Origin: an uncultured Eubacteriales bacterium
GTDB taxonomy: Bacteria > Bacillota > Sulfobacillia > Fermentithermobacillales > Fermentithermobacillaceae
DNA length: 64,000 bases
NCBI GenBank assembly: GCA_964641455.1
Contig: CAZXLH010000009.1
Span: 1,534-65,533 of the forward strand
Direction: 5' to 3'
Shown here: piece after piece, positions 30,263-45,866 of the stretch
Layout: every line of letters begins with the position of its first letter
How positions within the stretch are numbered: position 1 is the stretch's first letter
Position numbers and translations under genes: made by a program
Notes under the pieces: model-generated
The model's database searches: none
Seen by the model: only the letters and a program-made list of their open reading frames with translations
Told to the model about the DNA's origin: nothing

Positions 30263-30339
<77 letters not shown>

Positions 30340-30959: not shown

Positions 30960-32957
30960 TTATACAGCCAATTTGCTTTCCCCGGTTCGAGGGGTCTTGA
31001 CCCAGGCTTTTGGCTCTTTGCCAATGGTCTTAAGCACCAAAGCAGCAGTATAAGGAACAGGAAACATAAATGCTGCAAGGGGCAGCAAAAACAACCCAAG
31101 GTAAATTCCCAATTGGCCGGTAATGCTATCCGGCTTAGTAGATTGGTCCAGATGCTTCTCATACCGTTTGAACGCATAAATAGTGAAACCCATGTACACT
31201 ACAGAAAACAAACTCAACATCCATTGGCCTGCCGGTGGTATTATGTGAGGGTCCAGAAGATTTCTGTAATGCAACCCAAGAGCAATAGGAGGTACAAAGG
31301 TAGCCAGCTGATAAGCAACCCACTCCACTTGCCCCTTGATTATCAGGTTTCTCTTGATCCTGCGCCTTTCCGACGGATCGCCGGTTGGCTCATTGGATAT
31401 CTTATCTACTACTTGAAGATGCCCTGTTCCCCAACGTAATCTTTGCTTAAAAAATGCCCTAAACCCAGGCGGTGTCTGTTCAGAAGAGCAATAAGGCAAA
31501 TACTCAGGCCATGCAGCACTTTGCAGATAGGCTCTCACACCGAGTTCTAAGTCTTCTGTAAGCACATGGCAATCCCATCCACCAATTTCTCTGAGTAGTT
31601 GCCTTTCAACAAATACATTTGTGCCGCCGACAAAAGGTAACGTTCTAAAAAGCCACGGTAAGTACCAATCGTGCGCTATGGCCTGGTAAAGCGCAGCAAT
31701 TCTGCAAAACGGAGCCATGCTGTAAAAATTCCTTACTTGAAATACCGGGCCTTGAAGAACCCTTGTCCTTTCAGGTTCAAGCAAACGTCTATAGCCCACA
31801 TACAGAAGCACCTCGTTATGTGGCCTGCTTTCAGCGTCATAGAATCCGCAAATCTCTGAACGTGGGTTCAAAAAGCCAAGCCCCCAGTTAAGCGCCCTTC
31901 CTTTGGTAGAGGGTACACTGTTGCCTGTTCTCTTGCCACTCAATTTACCGTCAAAATCAAACGGGACTACAATGTGCTTGATGTCCGGATATTTCTTACC
32001 CTGCTGCTTCAACTCCTCTTGCACAAAAGTCACAATTTCTTGAGTTGTAGGATACATATCTTCCAACGCTGCCAACAGTTTTCTTTTGAGTTCGCCAGTC
32101 TTAACTGCACTCTTAAGAATAGTGGCTACCCTTCCGGCTATGAATTCTGTCATGCGCAAAATGATGTCTTGAGTAAGCTCATGGTTTGCCCTGGCTGTAT
32201 GTTTGATAGCCTTCTTCAGGACCGGATAGGCAGTGTCATCAAACAGTTGGGTATAAGCCGCCAGAACGGGCATTGACACTGCCAGTGAGGCAGGATAGAT
32301 TCGATCTATATCCAACTTAGAAAGCCATGGGCATGTTGTCTTTACAATATTCCGAAGCCTTTTGACACTGGTAGTTCCTTTGCAGTTAATAATTTCAATG
32401 GATATGTCTCTTACAATCACCTTTCTTTCTTTTGCAGGAAGAAGAGACAGCTCCGGAATACCTAAGGAATAGTCATCTTCAAATTTCTTTGACAGAAACT
32501 CGGCAAGTGCGTAATCGGCAAGAGAAGAAATGATGGCCTCCCTTGTCTTCGGTGCAACCTGTCCTGTAATCAAGTGTTTTCGTGAAGAGTTTTCAATTAG
32601 TTTTTGCGCCTGCCTTACAATGCTTTGCCGTTCATCATAAGTCTCGAAAATTTCTTTTTCATCTGTTACCACAAGAATTTCATATGATTTTTGAGGGTAC
32701 TCAAGGGCAGCCAAATGCCTTAGAGTGTTTCCTATGACCATAGACTCGTCTCTGGCAGGAACAAGTATGCTAATAAAGGGGACCTTCTTTCCCAGTTTAT
32801 GTGCTGCATTCTCAAGCGCTTTTTTACTCAAATTTGGCCTTTTGTTCCAATACTTCTTTTCGCTGTAATGCTTCCATACAAAGAACCTGGCAAAAAGCAA
32901 AAAGAATATGAGATACACGGAAAATGTTATTATGTATAAAGTCTGGGCAGCTGTCAT
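30960..32957 (-). CDS. membrane glycosyltransferase family 2, processive type (QxxRW), with a large insertion between the catalytic motifs
   Basis: 665 aa; N-terminal TM, GT2 core ILVPARDE...ILVVTDE, QRLRWGTG (Q-x-x-R-W) and C-terminal TM helices; about 250-aa helical insert not typical of PgaC/cellulose-synthase-like enzymes. Confidence 0.6.
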   Translation of the reverse strand: MTAAQTLYIITFSVYLIFFLLFARFFVWKHYSEKKYWNKRPNLSKKALENAAHKLGKKVPFISILVPARDESMVIGNTLRHLAALEYPQKSYEILVVTDEKEIFETYDERQSIVRQAQKLIENSSRKHLITGQVAPKTREAIISSLADYALAEFLSKKFEDDYSLGIPELSLLPAKERKVIVRDISIEIINCKGTTSVKRLRNIVKTTCPWLSKLDIDRIYPASLAVSMPVLAAYTQLFDDTAYPVLKKAIKHTARANHELTQDIILRMTEFIAGRVATILKSAVKTGELKRKLLAALEDMYPTTQEIVTFVQEELKQQGKKYPDIKHIVVPFDFDGKLSGKRTGNSVPSTKGRALNWGLGFLNPRSEICGFYDAESRPHNEVLLYVGYRRLLEPERTRVLQGPVFQVRNFYSMAPFCRIAALYQAIAHDWYLPWLFRTLPFVGGTNVFVERQLLREIGGWDCHVLTEDLELGVRAYLQSAAWPEYLPYCSSEQTPPGFRAFFKQRLRWGTGHLQVVDKISNEPTGDPSERRRIKRNLIIKGQVEWVAYQLATFVPPIALGLHYRNLLDPHIIPPAGQWMLSLFSVVYMGFTIYAFKRYEKHLDQSTKPDSITGQLGIYLGLFLLPLAAFMFPVPYTAALVLKTIGKEPKAWVKTPRTGESKLAV

Positions 32958-33106
32958 TGTGTCTGTGGGCCTCCTCTTAGGCTAACTTAAGATCAAGTTT
33001 TTGTCGCCCAGACTAGTGTTACGCTATATCACTACACCTATTCGTAGAAACAAAGGAGCGGCGAAATTAGCCGCTCCTGGTTCGGTCATAACAGTAAAGA
33101 ACGCGG

Positions 33107-34429
33107 TTACAGTATGCCGCCAACCATCTTAAGTGCTTCTTCCAAGCCAGGCGTTCCAATCTCCTGAAGCTCGTATCGTACTCGCAATGACGGCTTATCG
33201 ATCTTCATTACGCGGCGAAGATCTATAGGTGTAGCCACTATCACCAAATCGCACGGAACCTTATTGGCGGTTTCTTCAAGTTCCTTGACTTGTTTGGGCG
33301 AATATCCCATTGCAGGCAAAAGCGCACCTATATGTTCATGTTTATCAAGTGTTTGCTTGATAGAACCTACCGCCCATGGCCTGGGATCAACGGTCTCCGA
33401 AGCTCCCCACTTGCGAGCAGCGATCATACCGGCCCCGTAAGGCATTTCACCGTGGGTAAGGGTCGGCCCGTCTTCAATGACCAAGACCTTCTTACCTGTG
33501 ATCTTCTGAGGCTCTTCAAGTATGAGCGGAGAAGCTGCTTCAACGATTATGGCATTGGGGCAAACTTCTCTTACTGTATTTCTTAACTGGTCTACATACC
33601 TGGGATCTGCTGTGTCAATTTTGTTGATAAGTACAATGTCTGCCATTCTCAGGTTTGCTTCACCGGGATGATAAAGCATCTCATGCCCTGGCCGGTGTGG
33701 ATCGACAAGCACGATGTGGCAGTCAGATTCGTAGAAAGGCACGTCGTTATTTCCGCCATCCCAGAGTATGATATCTGCTTCCTGTTCGGCCCTCTTCAAA
33801 ATCTCACCGTAGTCAACCCCTGCAAAAACTACGATCCCTTCGTCGATATGAGGTTCATACTCTTCTCTTTCCTCTATTGTGCACTTGTGAGTATCCAGAT
33901 CTTCATAAGTAGCGAACCGCTGCCATATCTGGTCCTCAAGGTTTCCGTAGGGCATTGGGTGACGGATTACTGCAGTCTTCTTACCCGATGCTGCAAGAAT
34001 CTGGGCAATTTTCCTGGTAGTCTGGCTTTTTCCTACGCCTGTTCTTACCGCGCATACAGAGATAACCGGTTTACTGGATTTAAGTGCAGTGGACTTACAG
34101 CTAAGCAATTTGAAATTCGCACCTTTGGCCAAAACCGCAGACGCTTTGTGCATCAAGTCTACATGAGAAATGTCGCTATAGGAAAACACTACATCGTCTA
34201 TATCATATTTTTCGATAAGCTCAGGAAGTTGTTCCTCTGCATAAATAGGAATTCCATTGGGATAAAGCTCTCCGGCCAATTTGGCGGGATAAGTTCGCCC
34301 TTCAATATCTGGAATCTGAGTGGCTGTGAAGCACACTACCTTAACATCGGGATTATCTCTATACACTGTATTGAAATTGTGAAAATCCCTTCCGGCGGCT
34401 CCCATAATAATAACTTTCCTTTGTGCCAA
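33107..34429 (-). CDS. P-loop NTPase resembling cyclic 2,3-diphosphoglycerate synthetase (cDPGS-like)
   Basis: 440 aa; MAQRKVIIMGAAGRDFHNFN...; Walker A VCAVRTGVGKSQTT; assignment from remembered family features only. Confidence 0.4.
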   Translation of the reverse strand: MAQRKVIIMGAAGRDFHNFNTVYRDNPDVKVVCFTATQIPDIEGRTYPAKLAGELYPNGIPIYAEEQLPELIEKYDIDDVVFSYSDISHVDLMHKASAVLAKGANFKLLSCKSTALKSSKPVISVCAVRTGVGKSQTTRKIAQILAASGKKTAVIRHPMPYGNLEDQIWQRFATYEDLDTHKCTIEEREEYEPHIDEGIVVFAGVDYGEILKRAEQEADIILWDGGNNDVPFYESDCHIVLVDPHRPGHEMLYHPGEANLRMADIVLINKIDTADPRYVDQLRNTVREVCPNAIIVEAASPLILEEPQKITGKKVLVIEDGPTLTHGEMPYGAGMIAARKWGASETVDPRPWAVGSIKQTLDKHEHIGALLPAMGYSPKQVKELEETANKVPCDLVIVATPIDLRRVMKIDKPSLRVRYELQEIGTPGLEEALKMVGGIL

Positions 34430-34469
34430 TTGGTTTCCCTCCTGTTTTTCTCATTGCTAATTTGTGATT

Positions 34470-35489
34470 CTATGTCCACACTGCGCCCACAATATCTAAA
34501 CCTCTGTGGCATTTTGGGCAAGTTCCCTCACAAAGATAAGCCCCTTCGAGTTCAAGAGTTCCCCTTTCCAAAAGAAGTTCTCCGCATTGGGGGCACAGAG
34601 TATCCGCATAGCCTTTTTTCCAGGCATTTCCGATATACACATAGTCAAGTTTCTCCCTGGCTATTTCGCGGAGCCTTTCAAGTGAAGCAAGGGACGTAGG
34701 CGGCCTGTAATGCCTGTATGCAGGAAAGTAGCGAGAAAGATGCAACGGAATACCCGGATCAATATCGCTTAGCCACCCTGCAAGCCCCTTGATATCTTCA
34801 CCTTTGTCGTTTTCTCCGGGCACAACCAGGTAGGTTATCTCGACCCATGTGCCAGCATCAAAAGCTGTTGCTACTGTGTCCAACACAGGCTCTATTCTAC
34901 CTCCGGCAATTCGTCGGTAAAAATCCCCATGCCAGGCTTTTACATCAACATTCATTGCATCAATTAGCGGCAATAGTTCACTCAATGCTTCTTTTCCTAT
35001 GTAGCCGTTTGTTACCAGCACATTTGCAAAGCCTTGAGTTTTTGCTTCTTCAGCACACTCTTTTACAAACTCATACCAAACTGTAGGCTCGTTGTACGTG
35101 TAAGCCATACCAACTGTATTAGGGTACCGTTCCTTGTAAGAAACGCAAGTATCAACTGCTTGCTTTGGACTGAGCATTGTACAAAGAGGAGTCATCTGTG
35201 AGATCTGCCAATTCTGACAAAACCTGCATGTGAAATTACACCCGTAAGTGCCCAAAGAAAGCACAAGTGAGCCTGGGTGAAAGTGAAACAAAGGCTTTTT
35301 TTCCACCGGGTCTAACCCAATAGAAGTAACCTGCCCATAGTTAACGGAATACAAACGCCCGCCACGATTCTCCCTGACTTTGCAGGCTCCTCGCTTGCCC
35401 GGTAGAATAACACACATATTAGGGCAAAGGTTACACCTTACTTGCGCTTTGGTAAGCGGCTCCCAGCAGAGTGCCTCTTTCACACACAA
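34470..35489 (-). CDS. amrS: radical SAM enzyme, AmmeMemoRadiSam-system type (PFL-activase-like)
   Basis: 339 aa; CNFTCRFCQN radical SAM motif; N-terminal CxxC (CNLCPNMC) and C-terminal Cys pairs; directly downstream of the AMMECR1 fusion gene. Confidence 0.6.
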   Translation of the reverse strand: MCVKEALCWEPLTKAQVRCNLCPNMCVILPGKRGACKVRENRGGRLYSVNYGQVTSIGLDPVEKKPLFHFHPGSLVLSLGTYGCNFTCRFCQNWQISQMTPLCTMLSPKQAVDTCVSYKERYPNTVGMAYTYNEPTVWYEFVKECAEEAKTQGFANVLVTNGYIGKEALSELLPLIDAMNVDVKAWHGDFYRRIAGGRIEPVLDTVATAFDAGTWVEITYLVVPGENDKGEDIKGLAGWLSDIDPGIPLHLSRYFPAYRHYRPPTSLASLERLREIAREKLDYVYIGNAWKKGYADTLCPQCGELLLERGTLELEGAYLCEGTCPKCHRGLDIVGAVWT

Positions 35490-35508
35490 ACCTCCTCATT
35501 TTACTGTT

Positions 35509-36921
35509 TTAACGATAGCGCGATACAGTAAATCGGTAAATCTTAACCTGAGTGTCAAAGGGGCTAATGCCTGCCTTTCTCTTGGCAATGGAAAGCTGTT
35601 CCCTAACTGTATTGACACCTGGTAAATCGGGCAATAACAGCCCTTTCCTGTTTCCTTTTACGCAAATAACGCCATACTTCCTTGGATCAAGTTCTGAAAA
35701 GCCCTTTACTTCCACAGGATCAGACAGAATATCCACTGAATAATCCAACATCTCAAGTTCATCCAAAGTAACAGGTGAAAAACGAGGGTCCCTTGTTGCA
35801 GCGCTAACCGCATTTTGCATTATTTCTTGGGCAATGCTTCCGGTAGTAGGTTCCGTTGTTCCTATACAGCCTCTAAGGTCGCCTTCTTTATGGATAGATA
35901 CAAACACTCCGGCTTTCTTGCAAAACTCACTGGGAACAGGGCCTTCAACGGCAGGCAACCTGCCTTCGCTCACGTAATGCTCAACTGTGGTTCGTGCCAG
36001 CGATGCCGGAAAACTCTCGTCTTGACGTATCCGGCTGATAGTTTTCTGCCTCTTTAACCTAATGGCCTGAATACGTGATTCACTCCGGCTCCATCTCACA
36101 GGCCTGAACAAAGCGACGCAGTAGCCTACTCCAAACGGCCCTTCGTAAGATAAAACCTGTGGTTCAACCTGGGCCCCGTCGAGAGCCCCAAGCATAATTG
36201 ATATGGGCCTTAAACCACACTCTCCTGCATTTTCAATCAGATTCGATGGCATACACACAACCTCTTCAACGGAAAATGCTCTAAGTTTGTCAACGAGAAA
36301 CTCATCAAACACCTTGCCTTGTTCGTTGTATCCTGCCGGAGCGCCTGGCTGTAGCCTATGGGAAAGGTCTCCTGAAGCAAGAACGCCTATTTTACGCCCA
36401 ACACGTAAAGCCGCTTCGGCAATCTGCTTTCCAAAGAGATAAAGATCAAAGTAAGGTAAGAATCCTATATTTACTACTGCGATTTGCGCGTTAAACCCGT
36501 GTTTTTGCAGGTAATACATGGGAACAAGAACGCCGTGATCCAGCTTTGATTCAATTCCGTAACGACCAAATCTACGTTTGTCCAACGTTACAACCTTTAC
36601 AGGAGACTTCCGGCTGCCATCTTCTATTGCCCTTATGAGTTCCAGGTCGTTTTTGAATCGAACACCTATGCCACCGGCGCCAAACTGCCTAAGATCCCCT
36701 TCAAGGGTTTCCGTAACCGGTATTGAAACCGCATCGGAAAATACAGGCCCATGAGGCGTAATTACCACCAACGTTTGGATCCCGGCGCTGGAAAATACCT
36801 TGCCTATTTGATCCATAGCGTTTATGGTCTCAATTGCATCACGTTCCTCACCGCGTCCTACTTCCGGAATAATTATGGGCGGATGGGGTGCAAGCCCCGC
36901 CAGAACTAAATTATCAGGCAC
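35509..36921 (-). CDS. fusion protein: LigB/Memo-like (class III extradiol dioxygenase fold) domain + AMMECR1 domain (AmrB-AmrA-like)
   Basis: 470 aa; N-terminus LAGLAPHPPIIIPE...VVITPHGPVF (LigB/Memo-type); C-terminus GVFVSIHKEGDLRGCIGTTEP...ATRDPRF (AMMECR1); start overlaps the orr stop by 8 nt. Confidence 0.6.
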   Translation of the reverse strand: MPDNLVLAGLAPHPPIIIPEVGRGEERDAIETINAMDQIGKVFSSAGIQTLVVITPHGPVFSDAVSIPVTETLEGDLRQFGAGGIGVRFKNDLELIRAIEDGSRKSPVKVVTLDKRRFGRYGIESKLDHGVLVPMYYLQKHGFNAQIAVVNIGFLPYFDLYLFGKQIAEAALRVGRKIGVLASGDLSHRLQPGAPAGYNEQGKVFDEFLVDKLRAFSVEEVVCMPSNLIENAGECGLRPISIMLGALDGAQVEPQVLSYEGPFGVGYCVALFRPVRWSRSESRIQAIRLKRQKTISRIRQDESFPASLARTTVEHYVSEGRLPAVEGPVPSEFCKKAGVFVSIHKEGDLRGCIGTTEPTTGSIAQEIMQNAVSAATRDPRFSPVTLDELEMLDYSVDILSDPVEVKGFSELDPRKYGVICVKGNRKGLLLPDLPGVNTVREQLSIAKRKAGISPFDTQVKIYRFTVSRYR

Positions 36922-37990
36922 TTTCTAAGACCTCCTTGGTTACAAAAGGAGATGTGCTAGCCTTTAACAAAGCACTGTACGACATTGTGAACTCAAGAAT
37001 GCTGCCTACACCTATGGAACACTCAGCATCTTCTACATCGCAAATCAGGTGATCTGACGAAGCGCCCAGGATTTCGATGCCCCTTGCGCAGGGAGCAATC
37101 CCTGACGGATCGATATCCTGCTTACCTACTGAAACAATGGCCCGGCTTCTAACCCCTCTGTCCTCAAAAACCGGAACATCTCCGAAAGCGTCCTGCCCGA
37201 TTTCGCCAATGGGCTTAGATGGTTTGCGCTGCACCTCAATTACCTCTGCCTTTAACATAAAAGTATCATTGAAGCAGCCAGGTATAGGTTGCCTTTCTAC
37301 AGCTTCACGGCCAAGCAGAATTGCCTCGCCTATCCTGAGTTCTGTAATACCCAAAGTCATTTGCTTATCCAGGGCCAGCCTGAGATTTGCAGACGTTCCT
37401 CCTGATACCCGCTTGAGTTTTCGCCCTATACGCTGCTCAATTGCATTTTTCACCTCAATAAGAAGGGTCATCTTTTCAACTGTAGGAATTACTCCTCCGT
37501 AACAGGCCAAATTGGTGCCTATTCCTACTAAGTCAATCCCCTCTGTTTGATCCATTTCAAAAGCAACCTGAGGCGCTTGCTCAACCATGACACCTTCCCT
37601 AAGATCGCCAAGATCAACCATTAATACTACTTTGTGCATTTGGCCGGTTTTGCTTGCAGCCTCTCCCAAAAGTTTGACAGTATCTACTTCAGAATTAAGG
37701 CTGGTGTCTGCATACATCACAGTTTGCACGCACTGGGAAGGCCCGGGAGCCCTAAGCAAGACCGTCTCACCTTTGTAGCCCCACTCCCTTAGTTTTATAA
37801 GATTGTCAATTCGGGAATCCCCAATTGCATCTGCACCGCCGGATATCATAGCTTCTACTACAGCCAAGTTGGCACAAGTGCCTTTGGCCACGCCTACCAA
37901 GCGTATACCCTGTTTCAGAAGCATATTTGACAGTGTTTCAGTGTTATGCTCAATTTTTGCTTTGTTTATTGTAAGCAGCGGATAAGTCAT
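36914..37990 (-). CDS. orr: ornithine racemase (alanine-racemase-fold, PLP)
   Basis: Alanine racemase N-domain (VGVAKGTCAN...) plus C-domain; ATG at 37988-37990 forms ATGA overlap with oraF stop (listed ORF start 38062 likely too long); operon context. Confidence 0.7.
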   Translation of the reverse strand: MTYPLLTINKAKIEHNTETLSNMLLKQGIRLVGVAKGTCANLAVVEAMISGGADAIGDSRIDNLIKLREWGYKGETVLLRAPGPSQCVQTVMYADTSLNSEVDTVKLLGEAASKTGQMHKVVLMVDLGDLREGVMVEQAPQVAFEMDQTEGIDLVGIGTNLACYGGVIPTVEKMTLLIEVKNAIEQRIGRKLKRVSGGTSANLRLALDKQMTLGITELRIGEAILLGREAVERQPIPGCFNDTFMLKAEVIEVQRKPSKPIGEIGQDAFGDVPVFEDRGVRSRAIVSVGKQDIDPSGIAPCARGIEILGASSDHLICDVEDAECSIGVGSILEFTMSYSALLKASTSPFVTKEVLESA

Positions 37991-39336
37991 GATTCTAACC
38001 CCAAACTCTGTAACAGTAATGCCCTGGCATGCCCGGGATACTTTTTTGACAGCACCCCGCACGAAGCCATAATGTACTGTCTGTCCAACAGAATGCCGGC
38101 CGCCTTTGGATAAAGTTCCCTGCCATAACCCTGGCCCACAAGTCTTGAAAGAACCTGCCTGCCGCCGGGTAACCGGGTAAAAGGGCCTCCGGTGCCAATA
38201 ATGGTTTTGACACTTGACAGGTCTTTACCCGAAGCTACCGTCATCCTGCCTTGTGGCCCGTATAGATGTTTTATTGTCCCCACATGTCGCTTAAATGCTA
38301 TGTCACAAGCTATGTCTCTTAGATAAGACACAAGTTTCACGTGGTGTTCATGTTCCGGTATAACCTGCAAATTCTCCAAGGCCGGCTCTGCATCAAACCC
38401 TAACTCGAAATTGATTCTGTCTTTAACCAGCATGGCAATGTTTCGGGCGTTAACATGAATTCCCAAATCGCCTTCAACAGTTCTTTTTGCCCAAGGCTCA
38501 GGAGCCTCGAGGATAGCCTGGATTTCAGGGCTTCCTTTCGCCACTGAATGAACGTCAACAGTGGCTCCTCCAACATCGAGAGCGCACAGGTCGCCGAGTA
38601 CAGACCACAAAAGTTTGCACGACTCCATTACCGCTCCCGGCGTAGGCATTATGGGGCCATTTACCATACTCCTAATCTTATCCATTCCCGGAGCAGTTAC
38701 TATGTGCTCTTCAAAAACTTCTTGAATTACTTTCCTGGCCGGCTCAACAACCAGTTCATCTACCTTAGGATAAACATTGTCTACAAAATAAGTATCGATT
38801 TGTGCACGCTCAAAGATTTCCCCTATCTGGTTTCGGGCTGCAACGTTACCTGCGTATATTACCGGACAGGCCAAATTACATCCGGCAATCATCTGTGCAT
38901 TCCTTATGGCCGTATCCTTTTCACCATAATCCACTCCGCCTGCCAGCAAAATGATCTTAGGGTTTACCCGTTTCAACTGTTCAATATCAGCTGATGTCAT
39001 CTCACCTGCAGTAACCATTTTGATCACTGCGCCTGCGCCTAAAGCAGCCTCTTTGGCAGCTCTTACCGTCATGTCATAAACTAACCCATGAACGCTCATG
39101 GAAAGCCCGCCGGCCGCACTTGAGGCTGCCATCATCAGATCCCAACCAAGGTCCCTTACCCCAAGATTTAAGGCAAGATTGTCTATGGCCGACGAAAGTG
39201 CCACTGTAACGTCGCCGGGATCTTCCATAGTACAGGATATACCCTGTCCTAACACACGAGCATTGCCTTCAAGCCCGATAGCGTTTACTACAGTTGTAGT
39301 GCTGCCTATTTCAGCTACAAGTACATCGATTTTCAT
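37987..39336 (-). CDS. oraF: GlmL/MutL-like putative D-ornithine aminomutase reactivase
   Basis: MKIDVLVAEIGSTTT..., SSAAGGLSMSV, DVGGATVDV; ATG at 39334-39336 forms ATGA overlap with oraE stop. Confidence 0.65.
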   Translation of the reverse strand: MKIDVLVAEIGSTTTVVNAIGLEGNARVLGQGISCTMEDPGDVTVALSSAIDNLALNLGVRDLGWDLMMAASSAAGGLSMSVHGLVYDMTVRAAKEAALGAGAVIKMVTAGEMTSADIEQLKRVNPKIILLAGGVDYGEKDTAIRNAQMIAGCNLACPVIYAGNVAARNQIGEIFERAQIDTYFVDNVYPKVDELVVEPARKVIQEVFEEHIVTAPGMDKIRSMVNGPIMPTPGAVMESCKLLWSVLGDLCALDVGGATVDVHSVAKGSPEIQAILEAPEPWAKRTVEGDLGIHVNARNIAMLVKDRINFELGFDAEPALENLQVIPEHEHHVKLVSYLRDIACDIAFKRHVGTIKHLYGPQGRMTVASGKDLSSVKTIIGTGGPFTRLPGGRQVLSRLVGQGYGRELYPKAAGILLDRQYIMASCGVLSKKYPGHARALLLQSLGLES

Positions 39337-41582
39337 TGATCCCTTGCCCTTTTTCCTTTCCCTTGGGCCCAAAGCGCTTTGCGTTTTTCGACCAGGAACG
39401 ACGCCACATGAAGCCCTGTGGTCCCCCTGCCGAATCCTGCATCCAACCCTGCTTCAACGGCCAGATCGTTTGTAACCTGAGTGCCTCCGCCAACCAAAAT
39501 GAATCTGTCTCTTACACCTTTTTCTATAGATAGTTGGGCTAGCCGCTCCATGTTTTTTCTGTGTATGTCTGCATGGCTTATGATTGTAGATATCAATATA
39601 GCATCGGCATCTTCTTCAATGGCGGCATTTATCATTTTCTCAATTGGCACTGAAGTTCCAAGGTATACAGCCTCAATGCCAAAACCTTCAATGCCTCCGT
39701 GCTTTATGTCTATAATCTCCCGCATACCCACTGAATGCTCATCTTCGCCTACGGTACCGCAAACAACTTTCATTGGATGAGTAGATATCTCTTGCCTAAT
39801 TTCATCTTCTGACAACATTTTCGGCTTCTCAGGAATCTCAAGTGTGGTTTTATCAATGGAAAACGGTACTATGCCCTTAACCTCAACTAAAGTACCTTCT
39901 GAAGGGTGAATAACTCTCTTGTGAATCACTTCAGAGTCTTGCAAGCCCAGTTTTTCAGCAATTTCCAGTGACGCATATTCTGCTATTTCTTCTTTTTCGG
40001 GAATGAATATGGTCATGGTAATGCAACCGTCACCTGCCCACTCTACCTCAGGGCAAATTGAGTCTTCTGTAAACTTACGGCTCAATGTTTCAAGCCTCTT
40101 GTTCACATTATCCTCAGGATCTAATTCATCAATGTAGACGATTTTGCCTCTTTGGCACAAAGTGCATCCTTCTATTAAATCACAATGCTTTGAAAGCCCT
40201 TCAGGCAAACTATTGTACCCAAAATGACTGCATACAGGAGCCATGTAATCTTTGTCTCGCTTGACTATGCTCCCTGCTGCAATGCCGCCGTTTGGATCTC
40301 TGGCAATTCCATCGCCTTTTCTCTCAGGGTATTGTCCTGAGTCAACGAAAAAGCCACGGGCTACTGCATTGAAATAGCCTACTTCTTTGATTTCCTCCAG
40401 GAAAAGCACAGCCCTTTCTGCAATTTCTCTTACCTTCGTTGGAAGAGCTCCTTCTTTCTTAAGTTCAACCATTTGTGTCAGGCCATCCATTCCCAGAAGG
40501 GCCTGTTTAGCAGTTTCAACAGCCGCCACATTATTGTAATGCCACGGTACATTACGGCCTTCATCAGGAGTGATGGTGCTTTGCACGTCTACAGACGTAA
40601 GCCTCGATACCAAGAGATTAAGAACATGAGTTACAGTGGCTTCTCTTGTATCTGACTCTATGTACCTGGTATTCTGTTGCGCCCGAATCTTATAGTCAGA
40701 AAACAGCCATCTTAAGCACACTGCGTAAGGAAGATCATATGAAAGTGCAGGAGCAGGCGGCGCAGTAGGCGGCACTGATGAAAGAGCAATATTCTCTTTC
40801 TTCATACCAATCATTTCAGAGAAAACCGAATTTATGGCGTGCTGTACCAAAAGTTCGGGCATGACCTTCCACGCCTCTCTGGCAGTTGCATTGGCATTAT
40901 GAGCTCCGTCTATTTGCAACATGCCGCGTGAAGCCATTATTCTCTTGGCAACAGCAGCATCCACAAAAGATCTCTGCATATTTACATTTCTGTAAAGCAC
41001 ATTATACTGGGGATCCTGGTGAGCGCCGTTAACTCCCTCTTCTGCAAACATCACGGCTATTTCAGGGCCTGCTACCCCCGATACGTAAGAGTGAAAGTTT
41101 ATGGGCCTTCCAACTTCATCCTCGATCAAGTCCAGGGCCTTTCTGGTAGCACGCACTTGCTTTCTGGTAATCGGAACCCCGCCGATTCCTTCAGGGGTTC
41201 CTTCAAGAAGGCCATCCATATGGCTTTGGCCGGCAGTTCTGATAACCATCATATGATCAGCGCCGTGCCAAGCGGCCATCCGCATTCGCCTCAAGTCATC
41301 TTCGAACCGCCCTGAAGCAATTTCCGTAGTGATCACACAATCAGGTTGTGGATCTATATCGGCAAAATATCTCGCTGCCGGCAAAGGGACTGACTTTTTA
41401 AGCGGCTCAGACGTTTCCAAATACTTAAAGGGGCCCTCTTGGCCAGGCCCTTTGGTACGCCATGTCCACCCAAAGCGCCTGGGGCGATAGCCTTCAAGGC
41501 CTTGAAGAATTTGATTTATATCCATTTTTTGATCAGCGCTTAATGTATAGGTTCCTGTATTTGGTGTTTGCTGTTGTTTCAT
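39333..41582 (-). CDS. oraE: D-ornithine 4,5-aminomutase E (large, PLP + B12-binding) subunit
   Basis: 749 aa; ITTEIASGRFEDDLRRMRMAAWHGADH; C-terminal cobalamin-binding domain with DxHxxG (EDEHSVGMRE). Confidence 0.75.
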   Translation of the reverse strand: MKQQQTPNTGTYTLSADQKMDINQILQGLEGYRPRRFGWTWRTKGPGQEGPFKYLETSEPLKKSVPLPAARYFADIDPQPDCVITTEIASGRFEDDLRRMRMAAWHGADHMMVIRTAGQSHMDGLLEGTPEGIGGVPITRKQVRATRKALDLIEDEVGRPINFHSYVSGVAGPEIAVMFAEEGVNGAHQDPQYNVLYRNVNMQRSFVDAAVAKRIMASRGMLQIDGAHNANATAREAWKVMPELLVQHAINSVFSEMIGMKKENIALSSVPPTAPPAPALSYDLPYAVCLRWLFSDYKIRAQQNTRYIESDTREATVTHVLNLLVSRLTSVDVQSTITPDEGRNVPWHYNNVAAVETAKQALLGMDGLTQMVELKKEGALPTKVREIAERAVLFLEEIKEVGYFNAVARGFFVDSGQYPERKGDGIARDPNGGIAAGSIVKRDKDYMAPVCSHFGYNSLPEGLSKHCDLIEGCTLCQRGKIVYIDELDPEDNVNKRLETLSRKFTEDSICPEVEWAGDGCITMTIFIPEKEEIAEYASLEIAEKLGLQDSEVIHKRVIHPSEGTLVEVKGIVPFSIDKTTLEIPEKPKMLSEDEIRQEISTHPMKVVCGTVGEDEHSVGMREIIDIKHGGIEGFGIEAVYLGTSVPIEKMINAAIEEDADAILISTIISHADIHRKNMERLAQLSIEKGVRDRFILVGGGTQVTNDLAVEAGLDAGFGRGTTGLHVASFLVEKRKALWAQGKGKRARDQ

Positions 41583-41947
41583 GGACTCGTCTCACCTCCA
41601 AGACTCCCTGCAAGTTCATCCCATCCTATTCCTTTGGCAAGTTGCTTACCTGCCGAAAGGTAGCCTGCATTTGTAGCCTTAGCGTATTTGAGCACCAGGT
41701 TGCCTGCGCCTTTGCCAAGCAAGCCTCGCTTTTCTGCCAATGAAACAATAGCCTTGGCTTCCAAGCTTGAAAACCCCATACGCAAAAGAACCGATCGTTC
41801 AATCGAAGGTGAAGTATGGGTGTATGCAAGATCATAAAGAGGTTTGACTATTTCATGGGCAAGATCCCAGAATTCCTCTTTGAGCTCTTGGTCGGTCAAA
41901 CCTGCCAAATACTTTCGCCTTTGCTCAAAATCACATGCCCTTTGCAC
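41579..41947 (-). CDS. oraS: D-ornithine 4,5-aminomutase S (small) subunit
   Basis: 122 aa; position between ortB and oraE; ATGA overlap with oraE. Confidence 0.7.
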   Translation of the reverse strand: MQRACDFEQRRKYLAGLTDQELKEEFWDLAHEIVKPLYDLAYTHTSPSIERSVLLRMGFSSLEAKAIVSLAEKRGLLGKGAGNLVLKYAKATNAGYLSAGKQLAKGIGWDELAGSLGGETSP

Positions 41948-43365
41948 TAAACCTCCACCCCCATGTCTTTGAGGACCGAAACGACAAACGCCGGATTTGC
42001 CTTTGCATCTTCAGCCAGGAACTCCAGTTCTTCCTCTGTAACTTTCGTGACTCTGTTTCTGTTTACGGCATTGCGAATGTAAGATCTGCGCATCCTGTCA
42101 AGATCCATTTCAGTGATACCAACTTGTGAAAAATGCTCAGGAATTACTATGGCCTTTCCCGGAACGTTTTGCTCCGGATCTCCGCGCCAAACGGTAATTC
42201 CGTTCTTGCGGGCAAAGTCCAGCTGAGCATTGGGATGTTTTCCGGCTCCTGTATATTCAGTTTCCTGAACTACTACAATTTCATCTTCAGGAAGTTCTCT
42301 GGCAAGAGGAATAGCCGCAGCAAGTGACGTATTTCCTGCAGGCCCTCTTTCCATGCCTTCAATCTGTGCCAGGGCCTCGGTTACGTAAAACACTTCACCC
42401 TGGGTAACGGTAACATACCTGTCCAAATACCTAAGCGGCCTTGCAGCATTCTTGGGAACGTCAGTCCTGTCAGGCCAGGTAGCGAAAGGTACTCCAAACC
42501 CTGTATGTCCCGTGGTAAATGACTTTTTATTGAAATCATTGTCAGAGGCCATATGAAGGCCTGAAAGATCTACGCTGGCTCCTATTATCTTTGAATCTTT
42601 TGCTCCCGCCTTGAGCGCACCTCTGGCTGTGCCTGTTACGTTACCGCCTCCTGCATGGGTTACCACAACATAGGCAGGATCTTTTCCGTATCTCTCTCTC
42701 ACCTGCTCCACTAATTCGTACCCAAGAGTCTCTACCCCTGAGATGCCAAAGGGGCTATATAAAGATGCGTTGAAATACCCTGTCTCCTCCAGCAAGATAA
42801 GAGCCGAATAAAAAAGTTCAGGGCCGACTGTTAACTGTACAACTTCAGCGCCTAAGGCTTCACATTTTCTTGATTTTTCTATTATTTCAGGTTGCCCAAC
42901 ATGATGCGAATCGAATACTTCTTGCACAATAATGCAACCCAAGTTCATCATAGCTGCTTGCGACGCAACCGCAGCCCCATAGTTTCCGCTGGTAGCTGCA
43001 AGCACTCCGGGATAACCGAGTTGCTTTGCATGGTATACCGATACACTTGCCCTTCTGTCCTTGAAACTTCCGGAAGGATTACTCGCTTCATCCTTAACCA
43101 AAATTCGGGCTCCGTAACCTTTCCGTGAAGTTTTCCTTACGAGCCGGGTTATGTTTTTAAGTTCAAGAAGAGGTGTACTCCCAACGCCTGTTTGCTTTTG
43201 AATCTGAGTTACTTTTTCCAGAGAATACCCGGCTTTTTGCATCATGCCTTCATAATCAAAAGCAATTTTGGACTGAATGAACTCTTCGTATTCAATACCC
43301 AAAGCTTTTTTCATGATTTCACCGCGACGAGCCATTACCGCTTTGTAAGATAAGTCACGAGACAT
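41947..43365 (-). CDS. ortB: 2-amino-4-ketopentanoate thiolase beta subunit (PLP, Trp-synthase-beta fold)
   Basis: 472 aa; PLP-lysine region GSFKDRRASV, SGNYG glycine loop. Confidence 0.7.
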   Translation of the reverse strand: MSRDLSYKAVMARRGEIMKKALGIEYEEFIQSKIAFDYEGMMQKAGYSLEKVTQIQKQTGVGSTPLLELKNITRLVRKTSRKGYGARILVKDEASNPSGSFKDRRASVSVYHAKQLGYPGVLAATSGNYGAAVASQAAMMNLGCIIVQEVFDSHHVGQPEIIEKSRKCEALGAEVVQLTVGPELFYSALILLEETGYFNASLYSPFGISGVETLGYELVEQVRERYGKDPAYVVVTHAGGGNVTGTARGALKAGAKDSKIIGASVDLSGLHMASDNDFNKKSFTTGHTGFGVPFATWPDRTDVPKNAARPLRYLDRYVTVTQGEVFYVTEALAQIEGMERGPAGNTSLAAAIPLARELPEDEIVVVQETEYTGAGKHPNAQLDFARKNGITVWRGDPEQNVPGKAIVIPEHFSQVGITEMDLDRMRRSYIRNAVNRNRVTKVTEEELEFLAEDAKANPAFVVSVLKDMGVEV

Positions 43366-43366
43366 G

Positions 43367-43681
43367 TCAATTCCCCTCCTTCAACATGGCTCTTAATTCT
43401 TGGCCAATGTTTGAAAGTTCAGGGATACATGGCCCGAATGTATGAGTATATCCGGGGTTGACTCTGGTGAGAGTACCCTTAACTACACGGTTAGCGGGAG
43501 TGTGTATTTCAACCTCCTGCCCAATCTTTCCAGGCGTAAGGGCCCAACCTTTTATCCAGCACTCCAAAGGAACCTTTTTAGTGTCATCAGGAACGTCAGG
43601 AGAACGTTCGCCGGATTCCAATACAATATAGTGAATCTCAACCCACTCGCCCTTTTTACATGCTTCTGCCAAAATTACCAC
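43367..43681 (-). CDS. ortA: 2-amino-4-ketopentanoate thiolase alpha subunit
   Basis: 104 aa; 1-nt gap from ortB; conserved operon position. Confidence 0.65.
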   Translation of the reverse strand: MVILAEACKKGEWVEIHYIVLESGERSPDVPDDTKKVPLECWIKGWALTPGKIGQEVEIHTPANRVVKGTLTRVNPGYTHTFGPCIPELSNIGQELRAMLKEGN

Positions 43682-43736: not shown

Positions 43737-44762
43737 CTATTGCTTAGAGGTGACACCTGTAATTCCACGCGGGACAGGTAAATCAGCCATAGTCAAAAGG
43801 CCGGGGGACCCCTTAAGCACAAGAGGGATCATATTAACTGCAATAGCCATAGTTCCGGTTCCTCCCGGTATTTCAGGTTCTATAGCTACATTAATAGGTG
43901 GGTCTCCCTCGATCTTAATATAATCACCTGTCTTGACTCCTTCCGCTTCAGGGCATACTTGCTGAGGATGCTCAAGCAGTATCACTTCTTTGCCTTTACA
44001 ATACGCCCTCGCCGTGTGGCGACAACCTGCCACATTTCCAGGAGCAACCTTGACATGATCGGTAACCCGCTCAACATTTGTGAAGATAGGCAGCCTATCT
44101 TCAATTATTTCATCAATTTCCCAACCCAGCGCCTTACCTATCAACATTATCGATTGTTTAAATCCAACATGGCCTACAATATCTCCAGAGGCCAATCCTT
44201 TTTGAAACCCCGCGGGAGTTATGCCCACACCTTGGGTTTGCATAACGGTAGGGCCAAACGGGGCCAAATCGTTTACTCTCTTTCCGTGGATACGTCTTAT
44301 TTCCCTGCATATGCCTGTAAGTGAAACAATCAGCGTATCTAAAACGAAACCGGGGTTAATGCCTGTTCCTAAAACAGTCTTCCCCTGTTTACGGGCTATG
44401 GAGTCTATCCGGTTAGCCAATTCCTCTGATGCCACCCATGGATAAGCCATTTCCTCTGCAATCGTTATTACATCAGTGTTTTCTTCAAGAGCATATTTTA
44501 TTTGGGGAAATACGTCTTTAACGAAAGACGCTGTGACCACCAGAGCAATATCCGGTTCATGGCTGAAACCTTCTCTCAAATCGTCAGTCACCTTGACACC
44601 AATCGAGCTTGAGCCCAGAAGTTCGCCAACATCTTTTCCTACCTTGTCCGGATGATTATCGATAGCTGCCACAATTTGCATGTCTTTCTTTTCAAGCAGC
44701 ATAGATGCCATACCGCTTCCCATAGCCCCAAGCCCCCACAAAAGGACCTTTGTGTTTGCCAT
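43737..44762 (-). CDS. ord: 2,4-diaminopentanoate dehydrogenase
   Basis: 341 aa; Rossmann GLGAMG; DapB-like architecture; first gene of the ornithine oxidative degradation operon. Confidence 0.7.
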
Positions 44763-45051
44763 TCCCTGACCTCCTTTTGTATCTTAAGGACCAATTAATA
44801 GCAAAACCTTTGCTATCCATGTATGTGGCTTCGAGTCACCGGCAGAGTCAGTAGCCCCACTACCCTTATTCATTCTTGCATAAAGCGAAAACTCCTTCTT
44901 TTCAGCCGACAAACATTTGCCAAAATCAATAGAAAAGTCTCAACAAAACAGCATTTAACAGAAAATTTGCACAAGCGAGGCCGGGCCACTTGCTTCTATG
45001 GCTTGCAATAATCAGGTATGTCTTTGCGGTAAGCGGGGCTAACAGCAAACA

Positions 45052-45714
45052 CTAGTTGTCCTGTGTAACGAATTTGATAACTGCCTTATGTATACATGAA
45101 GCAAGTTGCTGCTGATATTTGGCTGAACCTAAGAGCTGCTCTTCCTGAGAGTTAGACAAAAACCCCAATTCTACAGTTACAGCCGGAATTTCGGCATGAT
45201 TGAGAATGAAGTGATCTAATCTTGAAGAAATTTCCCTGTCGGTTTCCGTGGATTTTACCAGTTCATCCTGAATGAGTTGAGCAAGTATTTTGGATTGAGG
45301 ATTCTGTGAATCATTGTAAAAAGTTTGAGCCCCTCTTTCGTAAGGATCAGTAAAAGCATTACAATGGATAGAAATAGCAATAGTTGATTTTGACTGTTTC
45401 ATAAGCCTTATTCTTGCCACAACATCGCTTACGTCAGCAGTCTCGAGATCGTAATCTCCTGTACGGGTATATACAACCCGAGCCCCGCTTCGTTCAAGAC
45501 GCACCCCTAAGAACAAGGCTACTTTGAGAACAATGTCTTTTTCTGTATATGTAATTCCACAAGCTCCCGGGTCAATCCCTCCGTGGCCTGGATCTATGAA
45601 TACCACATGGCCTGACAGCGGGCCGACAGCGGTAACCGGGATCACACCTCTGGAGATTACCAGGCTAAACAGTAATGAAACTGCTAATACTCCCAGTAAA
45701 CTCCTTAGAGTCAT
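45052..45714 (-). CDS. cwlD: N-acetylmuramoyl-L-alanine amidase, CwlD-like (Amidase_3)
   Basis: Signal/TM MTLRSLLGVLAVSLLF, VFIDPGHGGIDPGA, SIHCNAF; conserved location just after rpsI as in Bacillus. Start ambiguous: the listed ORF continues 28 codons 5' through a GC-rich hairpin that translates as RRRRRRRRGRRRGR. Confidence 0.7.
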   Translation of the reverse strand: MTLRSLLGVLAVSLLFSLVISRGVIPVTAVGPLSGHVVFIDPGHGGIDPGACGITYTEKDIVLKVALFLGVRLERSGARVVYTRTGDYDLETADVSDVVARIRLMKQSKSTIAISIHCNAFTDPYERGAQTFYNDSQNPQSKILAQLIQDELVKSTETDREISSRLDHFILNHAEIPAVTVELGFLSNSQEEQLLGSAKYQQQLASCIHKAVIKFVTQDN

Positions 45715-45716
45715 CA

Positions 45717-45753
45717 CAAAAAGGGGCCGGCCTCTTCGCCTGCCCCTTCTCCG
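45717..45753 (-). terminator. GC-rich hairpin (AAGGGGC...GCCCCTT with inner GGC/GCC stem) followed by UUUUU on the minus strand, about 110 nt downstream of rpsI
   Basis: Read directly from sequence; alternatively part of the cwlD coding region. Confidence 0.45.
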
Positions 45754-45866
45754 CCTTCTTCTTCGCCGTGGTATGCCCATCCCCACAGTTCCTCTCAAAA
45801 CAAAATATTGTATAAATGTATATACGCTTTCTAATCAAAAATATACCACAAATACAGGCTTGGATA

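Follow-up and report, generated by a model that had tools for sequence, protein, structure and literature searches.

All genes of the putative operon lie on the minus strand of the 64,000-nt stretch of DNA that we analyzed (the window). The ornithine genes ord, ortA, ortB, oraS, oraE, or-4, and orr come first and are followed by amrAB, amrS, and a gene for a 440-aa P-loop protein (Table 1). The starts of or-4 (449 aa) and orr (358 aa) were taken from the gene calls on an identical contig, L001. Contigs identical to this one derive from sequencing runs ERR6222551 and ERR6222547. In gene number and order, the first seven genes are common to this locus and to the cluster ord-ortA-ortB-oraS-oraE-or4-orr for oxidative L-ornithine degradation that Fonknechten et al. 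reportedly described in 2009 from Acetoanaerobium (Clostridium) sticklandii and C. difficile. The same order was found in approximately 70 other species. By contrast with the sticklandii and C. difficile cluster, amrAB, amrS, and the P-loop gene are added here on the 3′ side, before the terminator, and Orr falls below the NCBIfam cutoff. Its match to NF040742 is full-length at 410 bits, which is under the 'exception' cutoff of 480. Orr is in the orthologous position and is 41–48% identical to Orr of other clusters. The oxidative L-ornithine degradation pathway is cited in PMC8803604.

Table 1. Features of the ornithine and amr genes, with positions in the window.
Feature	Description	Position	Strand	Evidence
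ord	2,4-diaminopentanoate dehydrogenase, first cassette gene	43737..44762	(-)	NF040740 510.6 bits vs cutoff 400; PF19328
ortA	2-amino-4-oxopentanoate thiolase small subunit	43367..43681	(-)	PF22010 OrtA, precomputed on the identical L001 gene
ortB	PLP-dependent thiolase subunit	41947..43365	(-)	NF040741 855 bits vs cutoff 550
oraS	D-ornithine 4,5-aminomutase small subunit	41579..41947	(-)	PF16552 153.7 bits
oraE	B12/PLP-dependent D-ornithine 4,5-aminomutase large subunit	39333..41582	(-)	NF040743 1325 bits vs cutoff 800
or-4	GlmL-related ornithine degradation protein ('oraF' in the earlier note)	37987..39336	(-)	NF040744 609.7 bits vs cutoff 600
orr	Ornithine racemase-like PLP enzyme, last cassette gene	36914..37990	(-)	NF040742, PF01168
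Shine–Dalgarno for amrAB	AAGGAGG in last orr codons, 9 nt 5′ of start	36931..36937	(-)	Read from sequence
amrAB	AmmeMemoRadiSam protein A type, 470 aa	35509..36921	(-)	LigB PF02900 131 bits; AMMECR1 PF01871 152; TIGR04335 133.5 vs cutoff 99
amrS	AmmeMemoRadiSam radical SAM enzyme	34470..35483 (35489 if TTG start)	(-)	TIGR04337 295 bits vs cutoff 220; PF04055
P-loop gene	P-loop (GVGKS) protein, 440 aa, last gene of unit	33107..34429	(-)	Weak cobW match, PF02492 23 bits
Intrinsic terminator	AGGAGCGGC-taatttc-GCCGCTCCT then TTGTTTCT	33054..33078	(-)	9 pairs, 7 G-C

The earlier note on this DNA named the gene after orr a LigB/Memo-like and AMMECR1 fusion and the next one an AmmeMemoRadiSam-type radical SAM gene. 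Profile searches with the models for protein A (TIGR04335), protein B (TIGR04336), and the radical SAM enzyme (TIGR04337) of this system, together with the AMMECR1 and LigB families, placed both genes as claimed. AmrAB has a LigB/Memo-superfamily domain at approximately aa 9–271 and an AMMECR1 domain at approximately aa 303–468, and its PDB matches are 1zq7, 1vaj, and 5hee. The N-terminal domain matched LigB PF02900 (131 bits) and TK2203 (5hee) rather than a Memo-type protein, since its score of 20.9 bits with TIGR04336 (AmmeMemoSam_B) is under the cutoff of 26. Some AmrAB homologues carry a precomputed match to Memo PF01875. The motifs RGCIG and DPRF of the AMMECR1 domain were invariant in a 13-sequence alignment; the corresponding active-site motifs, RGChG and DxRa, were defined by Balaji & Aravind 2007 (PMC2034487), who also reported the AMMECR1/dioxygenase/radical-SAM neighborhood and fusion and predicted an RNA base or other housekeeping substrate. 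In the literature on AmmeMemoRadiSam and AMMECR1 (including that since 2019) in combination with radical SAM, Memo, or LigB, we found no biochemical function, only this 2007 prediction.

Translation of amrS revealed the cluster motif CNFTCRFC (CX3CX2C) and a resemblance to PflA activases (74.6 bits; PDB match PflA 8fo0). Its probable start is the GTG at 35483, which has a well-spaced Shine–Dalgarno sequence (GAGGAGG, 35491–35497) and is used by gene callers on L001. The gap between amrAB and amrS, previously put at 20 nt, measures 19 nt if amrS begins at the TTG and 25 nt if it begins at the more likely GTG. At E ≤ 1e-20, at least 7,869 homologues of the fusion of LigB and AMMECR1 were found, among them proteins of Thermincola and Desulfoscipio. 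As in the AmmeMemoRadiSam system elsewhere, an AMMECR1 domain with RGCIG and DPRF is fused to a LigB-superfamily domain, a cognate PflA-like radical SAM gene lies directly 3′, and a fusion of 465–470 aa is present in thousands of Bacillota. Judged by these matches, amrAB and amrS are unremarkable representatives of AmmeMemoRadiSam, a family that is widespread. What sets the pair apart, besides an N-terminal LigB domain below the Memo-type cutoff, is that no separate upstream region precedes it and that it overlaps the last gene of the ornithine operon. This overlap is restricted to one clade and one further locus, L044.

The stop codon of orr (TGA, 36916–36914) and the GTG start of amrAB (36921–36919) give an overlap of 8 nt (GTGCCTGA), and the ORF coordinates agree with the overlap first described. 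This start is right, since the N-terminus of AmrAB aligns with those of 12 homologues in the pattern M-x-x-[VIL]V-x-AGL-x-PHPP. AAGGAGG or AAGGTGG also occurs at the place equivalent to the amrAB Shine–Dalgarno sequence in L004, L011, L008, L015, and L016, and the distance at the orr–amrAB junction is kept between -16 and +12 nt throughout the clade. Other genes of the operon overlap by 1 nt (ortB/oraS) or 4 nt (oraS/oraE, oraE/or-4, and or-4/orr), so the 8-nt overlap is not special there.

The terminator 3′ of the P-loop gene is the best terminator-like site between 32500 and 45900 and the only strong one, and no credible internal terminator was found in the operon. A consensus scan for promoters, which covered sigma-70-type sites only, gave a total of 16 sites versus 18.6 expected, or chance level. 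It found no promoter-like site on the minus strand between 38062 and 36921 and none upstream of ord or inside orr. Matches in a search for sigma-54-type -24/-12 sites were also at chance level, none of them convincing upstream of ord, and Rfam applied to the entire window returned one tRNA only, with no riboswitch or leader before ord or amrAB. A candidate operator palindrome before ord (TAGCAAAACCTTTGCTA) was dropped because it is in no locus beyond the identical contig. Because orr and amrAB overlap, a Shine–Dalgarno sequence lies inside orr, no credible terminator or promoter was found internally, and a terminator follows the P-loop gene, it is plausible and well supported by sequence that ord through the P-loop gene form a single transcription unit with translational coupling. 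In this the earlier note appears to have been correct.

The 40-nt gap given between amrS and the P-loop gene was exact, and the latter has its own Shine–Dalgarno sequence (AGGAGGG, 34437–34443). Its product is very highly conserved, with homologues 62–85% identical in Bacillota and 67% identical in Anaerolineae. Annotation pipelines call the family a GTPase or 'cDPGS', for cyclic 2,3-diphosphoglycerate synthetase. The likeness to solved cDPGS structures behind the earlier description 'cDPGS-like' is weak. The protein is similar to cDPGS (PDB 8ork/8oru/9sxb) in length and in having a P-loop, and there is a weak local match of 24.9 bits at best (9sxb) over approximately 110 residues, with the cDPGS structures scoring 19–25 bits (E 8e-5 to 4e-3). 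By contrast, it matched no curated family model, and no NCBIfam match exceeded 20 bits. The name 'cDPGS' is probably an over-annotation of this family. The P-loop protein was also rejected as an obligatory fourth Amr component, since its gene is absent 3′ of amrS in Thermincola, in Thermoanaerobacter, and at 77 of 80 metagenomic loci. The gene does come after amrS in the ornithine-positive clade, in Anoxybacter, and at L127, and it occurs alone in Thermosediminibacter and one Anaerolineae genome. At L016 an antisense M20/M28 peptidase gene (a 1.9-kb insert) separates it from amrS.

We compared the locus with approximately 170 related loci. Among these were 66 informative ornithine clusters from different species, and those counted as amr-free had at least 3 kb of downstream sequence. 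No amrAB, amrS, or P-loop gene was found downstream in 59 of the 66. The remaining seven had amr downstream, and six of these belonged to one clade related to Ca. Fermentithermobacillaceae; recurrence of the adjacency in independent lineages was not found. Viewed from the amr side, none of 80 metagenomic amrAB loci (43 with at least 3 kb upstream) had ornithine genes, and neither did the amr loci of Anoxybacter and Thermoanaerobacter. In L012, whose Or-4 is 70% identical, the cassette is elsewhere, with thiamine genes on one side, a convergent regulator gene on the other, and no amr, and in L017 a cassette without amr is followed by amidohydrolase and asparaginase genes. Thermincola potens has the order truA-rplM-rpsI-...-Amidase_3-amrAB-amrS without ornithine genes, and rplM-rpsI-amidase-amrAB-amrS, likewise without them, was seen on several metagenomic contigs. 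An rpsI or amidase gene was upstream of amrAB at 9 of the 45 metagenomic loci that have enough upstream DNA. L127 reads rpsI-amidase-amrAB-amrS-..-Ploop-GDT1. L007 has rplM-rpsI-amidase-[219 nt]-amrAB-amrS-Ploop-GDT1-NYN; the site is the same as in the rest of the clade, and the cassette is absent. The earlier note's hint at maturation or repair of the pathway enzymes is therefore not supported, since the adjacency is absent in related genomes, an outcome that the note itself had named as refuting.

In a neighbor-joining tree of AmrAB and AmrS, from which L044 was left out, the ornithine-positive loci formed one clade with 100% bootstrap. The ornithine-negative L007 was nested inside this clade, also with 100% bootstrap, which points to a single gain, followed by one loss in which amr was kept. 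GC and GC3 show no break between the cassette and the amr genes, as would fit an old insertion. L044 (UBA8153) falls outside the core clade in single-gene trees and lacks the AMMECR1 domain altogether; it could be a second, independent juxtaposition.

From these comparisons we consider it likely that the 7-gene cassette was inserted once, long ago, between the amidase gene and amrAB, and that the amr genes are its downstream passengers. The ancestral position of amr would be downstream of rplM-rpsI and the Amidase_3 gene. In the ancestor of the clade, a self-contained cassette from ord to orr would have entered between the amidase gene and amrAB and replaced a region of approximately 220 nt, the presumed site of the amr promoter. 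Read-through from the ornithine operon has probably accounted ever since for transcription of amrAB, amrS, and, at this locus, the P-loop gene, and ribosomes ending at the orr UGA may restart at the GUG 8 nt upstream, aided by the AAGGAGG in the last orr codons. The coupling of expression, as read from the sequence, would then be real but a historical accident of the insertion, and it would not speak for maturation or repair of the B12/PLP enzymes by the Amr proteins. Because the cassette would have been inserted once before genes that were already there, the adjacency probably reveals little about amr function. The families and the predictions in PMC2034487 suggest that AmrS may make a 5′-deoxyadenosyl radical, which would act on a substrate bound in the cleft of AMMECR1, where the conserved cysteine lies, and that the metal site of the LigB-like domain may do a follow-up redox step.

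The features that fit least well with amr as passengers are those expected if the Amr proteins mature, repair, or supply a cofactor to the B12/PLP enzymes of arginine and ornithine catabolism and have been kept in the operon for this reason, which we think quite unlikely. The junction overlaps, has a Shine–Dalgarno sequence, and is conserved within the -16 to +12 nt range over substantial divergence (AmrAB down to 52–56% identity). This counts against the passenger reading, and it implies that selection has not favored the return of a separate promoter region. At L003, amrAB is still attached though orr is missing. An ornithine carbamoyltransferase gene is directly 3′ of amrS in L008/L018 and L015, and carbamate kinase and ornithine carbamoyltransferase genes are there in the more distant L044, so that amr is embedded between catabolic genes. 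That arginine/ornithine catabolic genes lie on either side of amr in these genomes is somewhat surprising if amr is a pure passenger, and these 3′ genes in some relatives are the residual support for a real link. The likeness of AmrS to protein-activating radical SAM enzymes such as PflA (74.6 bits) also fits a role in maturation. Against this, amr is not near the ornithine cluster in 59 of 66 cases, ornithine genes occur at 0 of 80 amrAB loci, L007, having lost the cassette, still has its amr module in place, and the close relatives L012 and L017 have the cassette elsewhere with no adjacent amr. The core-clade cases all trace to a single evolutionary event, and L044 is without the AMMECR1 domain. 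The pathway also has its own putative reactivase in Or-4, and, to our knowledge, none of its reactions calls for a radical SAM enzyme. That the pair was recruited into an arginine/citrulline/ornithine catabolic super-operon of the Ca. Fermentithermobacillaceae-related clade and acts on a pathway enzyme, cofactor, or intermediate is likewise quite unlikely.

A promoter in the 3′ part of orr or or-4 might instead drive amrAB and amrS with no meaningful co-expression, and housekeeping-type genes are indeed expected to need expression without ornithine. Our sigma-70-type scan found nothing convincing even upstream of ord and may therefore miss the promoters that this organism uses. We nevertheless regard this as unlikely. 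The minus strand from 38062 to 36921 has no promoter-like site and the total was at chance level, the 219-nt region upstream of amrAB in L007, taken as ancestral, has been lost, and an 8-nt overlap with a Shine–Dalgarno sequence is a classic arrangement for coupled translation. Insertion of the cassette in front of resident amr genes is the reading that we prefer.

Conservation of AMMECR1, Memo, and the radical SAM enzyme that partners them extends from archaea to humans, and AMMECR1 is a human disease gene. We know of no reaction for these proteins, so any reliable functional association would be valuable. The comparisons indicate that the arrangement here is a one-off insertion in one bacterial lineage, so the adjacency should not guide hypotheses about Amr biochemistry, and the locus is a clear example of an operon fusion that mimics functional linkage. 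They also document the probable ancestral position of the amr module in Bacillota, beside the rplM-rpsI cluster. Expression of amr in this lineage probably follows that of an inducible catabolic operon, which may be exploitable in experiments. Recruitment into the super-operon, if true, would open the first way into the physiology of a system with such broad conservation.

All relevant genes in the window lie on the minus strand, from rplM-rpsI and an Amidase_3 gene across a 290-nt spacer into the seven genes ord-ortA-ortB-oraS-oraE-or-4-orr, which are the canonical oxidative ornithine-degradation cluster (the cassette). The most divergent of these is orr, the racemase gene; Orr is just 41–48% identical to its counterparts in other Clostridia compared with 63–73% for OraE. 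The 290-nt spacer ahead of ord showed no recognisable promoter of the sigma-70 or sigma-54 type. A perfect palindrome (TAGCAAA-ACC-TTTGCTA, 44799–44815) occurs about 35 nt 5′ of the ord start. When it was searched for in related loci it was found in the identical contig only, so it is probably no conserved operator.

The cassette runs directly into amrAB, which encodes a LigB-like domain fused to AMMECR1. As the earlier note had it, the orr stop codon (TGA, 36916–36914) falls inside the start of this gene; the 470-aa amrAB frame begins with GTG at 36921–36919 and the 8-nt overlap common to both genes is GTGCCTGA. The motif AAGGAGG (36937–36931) lies 9 nt 5′ of the GTG within the last orr codons, and residue-by-residue alignment of the AmrAB N-terminus with 12 homologues indicates that this start is right. 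Because comparable overlaps occur inside the cassette (1 nt for ortB/oraS, and 4 nt each for oraS/oraE, oraE/or-4, and or-4/orr), amrAB is integrated as tightly as the cassette genes. Promoter- and terminator-like matches within the unit were at or below chance, with none on the coding strand between or-4 and amrAB. One transcript with translational coupling would be the natural reading of this arrangement.

Features of the ornithine-amr region and of inserts in related loci (L handles)
Feature	Position	Strand	Evidence or remark
Amidase_3 gene	45052-45798	-	upstream of cassette
ord	43737-44762	-	above NCBIfam equivalog cutoff
ortA	43367-43681	-	OrtA Pfam domain
ortB	41947-43365	-	above NCBIfam equivalog cutoff
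oraS	41579-41947	-	OraS Pfam domain
oraE	39333-41582	-	above NCBIfam equivalog cutoff
or-4, GlmL-like	37987-39336	-	above NCBIfam equivalog cutoff
orr	36914-37990	-	NF040742 end to end, 410 bits vs cutoff 480
amrAB domain 1, LigB superfamily			PF02900, 131 bits; nearest structure TK2203, 5hee
amrAB domain 2, AMMECR1			PF01871, 152 bits; TIGR04335, 133.5 vs cutoff 99; structures 1zq7, 1vaj
P-loop gene, 440 aa	33107-34429	-	starts 40 nt after amrS
Intrinsic terminator	33078-33054	-	directly 3′ of P-loop gene; only strong one in region
amrS/P-loop spacer insert	L008 12561-13490; L015 14890-15846; also L018		ornithine carbamoyltransferase
amrS/P-loop spacer insert	L044 7238-9115		carbamate kinase + ornithine carbamoyltransferase
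amrS/P-loop spacer insert	L016 14901-16556	-	antisense M20/M28 peptidase gene

Profile searches bear out the identities proposed in the earlier note for amrAB and for amrS, the AmmeMemoRadiSam radical SAM gene that follows it. In AmrAB, the AMMECR1 motifs RGChG and DxRa appear as RGCIG and DPRF. AmrS scores 295 against a TIGR04337 cutoff of 220, carries a CNFTCRFC motif, and has PflA as its nearest solved relative. The two genes are adjacent as described, but the gap is more likely 25 nt than the 19–20 nt given before, since the most probable amrS start is GTG 35483, with GAGGAGG 7 nt 5′ of it. AmrAB and AmrS belong to the AmmeMemoRadiSam families as regular members: protein A and the radical SAM enzyme both exceed their cutoffs, and the B-position domain is of the LigB type and misses the Memo-type 'protein B' cutoff (20.9 versus 26). 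The AMMECR1/ring-opening-dioxygenase/radical-SAM neighbourhood and its gene fusions were described in 2007 with a predicted role in RNA base modification (PMC2034487). The neighbourhood has since been codified as the AmmeMemoRadiSam families, and we found no biochemical assignment after that prediction in the searchable literature.

An alignment of 19 diverse Or-4 proteins served as the query for a scan that covered a single genome of each species. We took the best 80 of 579 confirmed matches together with flanking DNA of up to 10 kb and annotated them in tblastn searches that used the proteins of the window as queries. Among these 80 loci, amrAB, amrS, or the P-loop gene lies downstream in seven, none of the three occurs in 59 with at least 3 kb downstream, and 14 were too short to judge; the best matches favour the window's relatives, so the true amr-bearing fraction is lower still. 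Six positives (L010, L011, L015, L016, L018, and L019), whose Or-4 shares 63% identity or more with that of the window, fall into a single group made up of MAGs labelled 'Bacillota bacterium' or Ca. Fermentithermobacillaceae, and the nearest named genome is Ca. Fermentithermobacillaceae DTU015 (80%). L044 (UBA8153) makes up the seventh positive. The pattern is broken by two close relatives. The L012 cassette (Or-4 70%) has thiamine-salvage genes on one side and a convergent regulator gene on the other, and in L017 (67%) the genes that come after or-4 are of the amidohydrolase, asparaginase, and dehydrogenase types.

At E ≤ 1e-20 we counted at least 7,869 homologues of the LigB+AMMECR1 fusion. 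Those 55–100% identical usually show the order rplM-rpsI-amidase-ord...orr-amrAB-amrS-Ploop-GT2-GDT1-NYN. Locus L007 (64%) has rplM-rpsI-amidase-[219 nt]-amrAB-amrS-Ploop-GDT1-NYN without ornithine genes, Thermincola potens (47%) has truA-rplM-rpsI-...-Amidase_3-amrAB-amrS, and the amrAB and amrS genes of Anoxybacter and Thermoanaerobacter have different surroundings. When metagenomes were scanned with an AmrAB alignment built around distant members, 80 loci were obtained, 43 of them with at least 3 kb upstream, and none contained ornithine-cassette genes (E ≤ 1e-6). In this set amrS adjoins amrAB in 60 of 75 informative loci and 9 of 45 have rpsI or the amidase gene on the upstream side; one metagenomic locus, L127 (44% identity), reads rpsI-amidase-amrAB-amrS-..-Ploop-GDT1.

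In a neighbour-joining tree of concatenated AmrAB and AmrS (788 columns), the ornithine-positive loci that could be included form a single clade with 100% bootstrap, and the ornithine-negative L007 is nested within it beside the window's subgroup, also with 100% bootstrap. The simplest account would need two steps. In the first, a single insertion would have placed the cassette into a gene order older than the clade, with the amidase gene on one side and amrAB on the other; later, the L007 lineage would have lost the cassette and kept the amr genes. We consider it probable that the amr genes were already in place and were then simply carried along. GC and GC3 are uniform over the cassette and amr genes, as expected for an old event. 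Since the clade points to a single event, the many genomes with this adjacency count as one observation rather than independent replicates. The orr-to-amrAB junction ranges from -16 to +12 nt in all ornithine-positive members. In the related locus L003 (GCA_053529315.1, 8631–11410) the cassette lacks orr, and or-4 is followed after 23 nt by amrAB.

The earlier note had proposed co-expression and hinted at a role in the pathway; co-expression is probable, whereas functional recruitment of the amr genes to ornithine degradation seems to us quite unlikely. Recruitment would fit the catabolic genes found just 3′ of amrS in L008/L018, L015, and L044, where the amr genes are flanked by two sets of arginine/ornithine catabolic genes. 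Trees of AmrS and of the P-loop protein place L044 beyond the core clade, so its arrangement could have arisen as a second juxtaposition. However, the L044 contig is truncated on the upstream side, orr looks split there, and the 'amrAB' gene encodes a LigB protein alone (274 aa) that lacks the AMMECR1 domain, though amrS comes next. Within this part of L044 (3941–6200), the orr region is divided between two overlapping frames, suggestive of a frameshift or a pseudogene. In relatives, the short amrS/P-loop spacer is a hot spot for insertions and also takes unrelated DNA; the antisense peptidase gene in L016 speaks more for a site that tolerates insertions than for a functional design.

The 40-nt gap before the P-loop gene agrees with the earlier description. 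Its product does have a P-loop, but the proposed likeness to cDPGS is weak, with solved structures matching at 19–25 bits only and no match in the curated families searched. Pipelines name it a GTPase or cyclic 2,3-diphosphoglycerate synthase, and the latter annotation is probably wrong. It is the most conserved protein of the locus (76–85% within the clade versus 56–72% for AmrAB and AmrS), with 62–85% identity across Bacillota, 64% in Anoxybacter, and 67–68% in Thermosediminibacter and an Anaerolineae MAG. We rejected it as an obligatory Amr component, because its gene occurs on its own in Thermosediminibacter oceani and an Anaerolineae contig and is missing from 77 of the 80 metagenomic amrAB loci. 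The P-loop gene is not tied to ornithine.

A 665-aa membrane GT2 glycosyltransferase gene (30960–32957, minus strand) with its own SD follows the terminator. Most ornithine-positive relatives have it but L007 does not, so its gain or loss went together with that of the cassette or happened near it. In L008 (13537–14859 and 17102–18436), L015, and L018, two P-loop paralogues flank the GT2 gene. Farther 3′ of the operon, between GDT1-family and NYN-domain genes, is a tRNA gene (30266–30339, minus strand; 68.8 bits), the one Rfam match over the 64-kb window.

Together, these data indicate that the locus is a lineage-specific operon fusion of known gene families. What is particular about it is the gene order alone, which is confined to one lineage.
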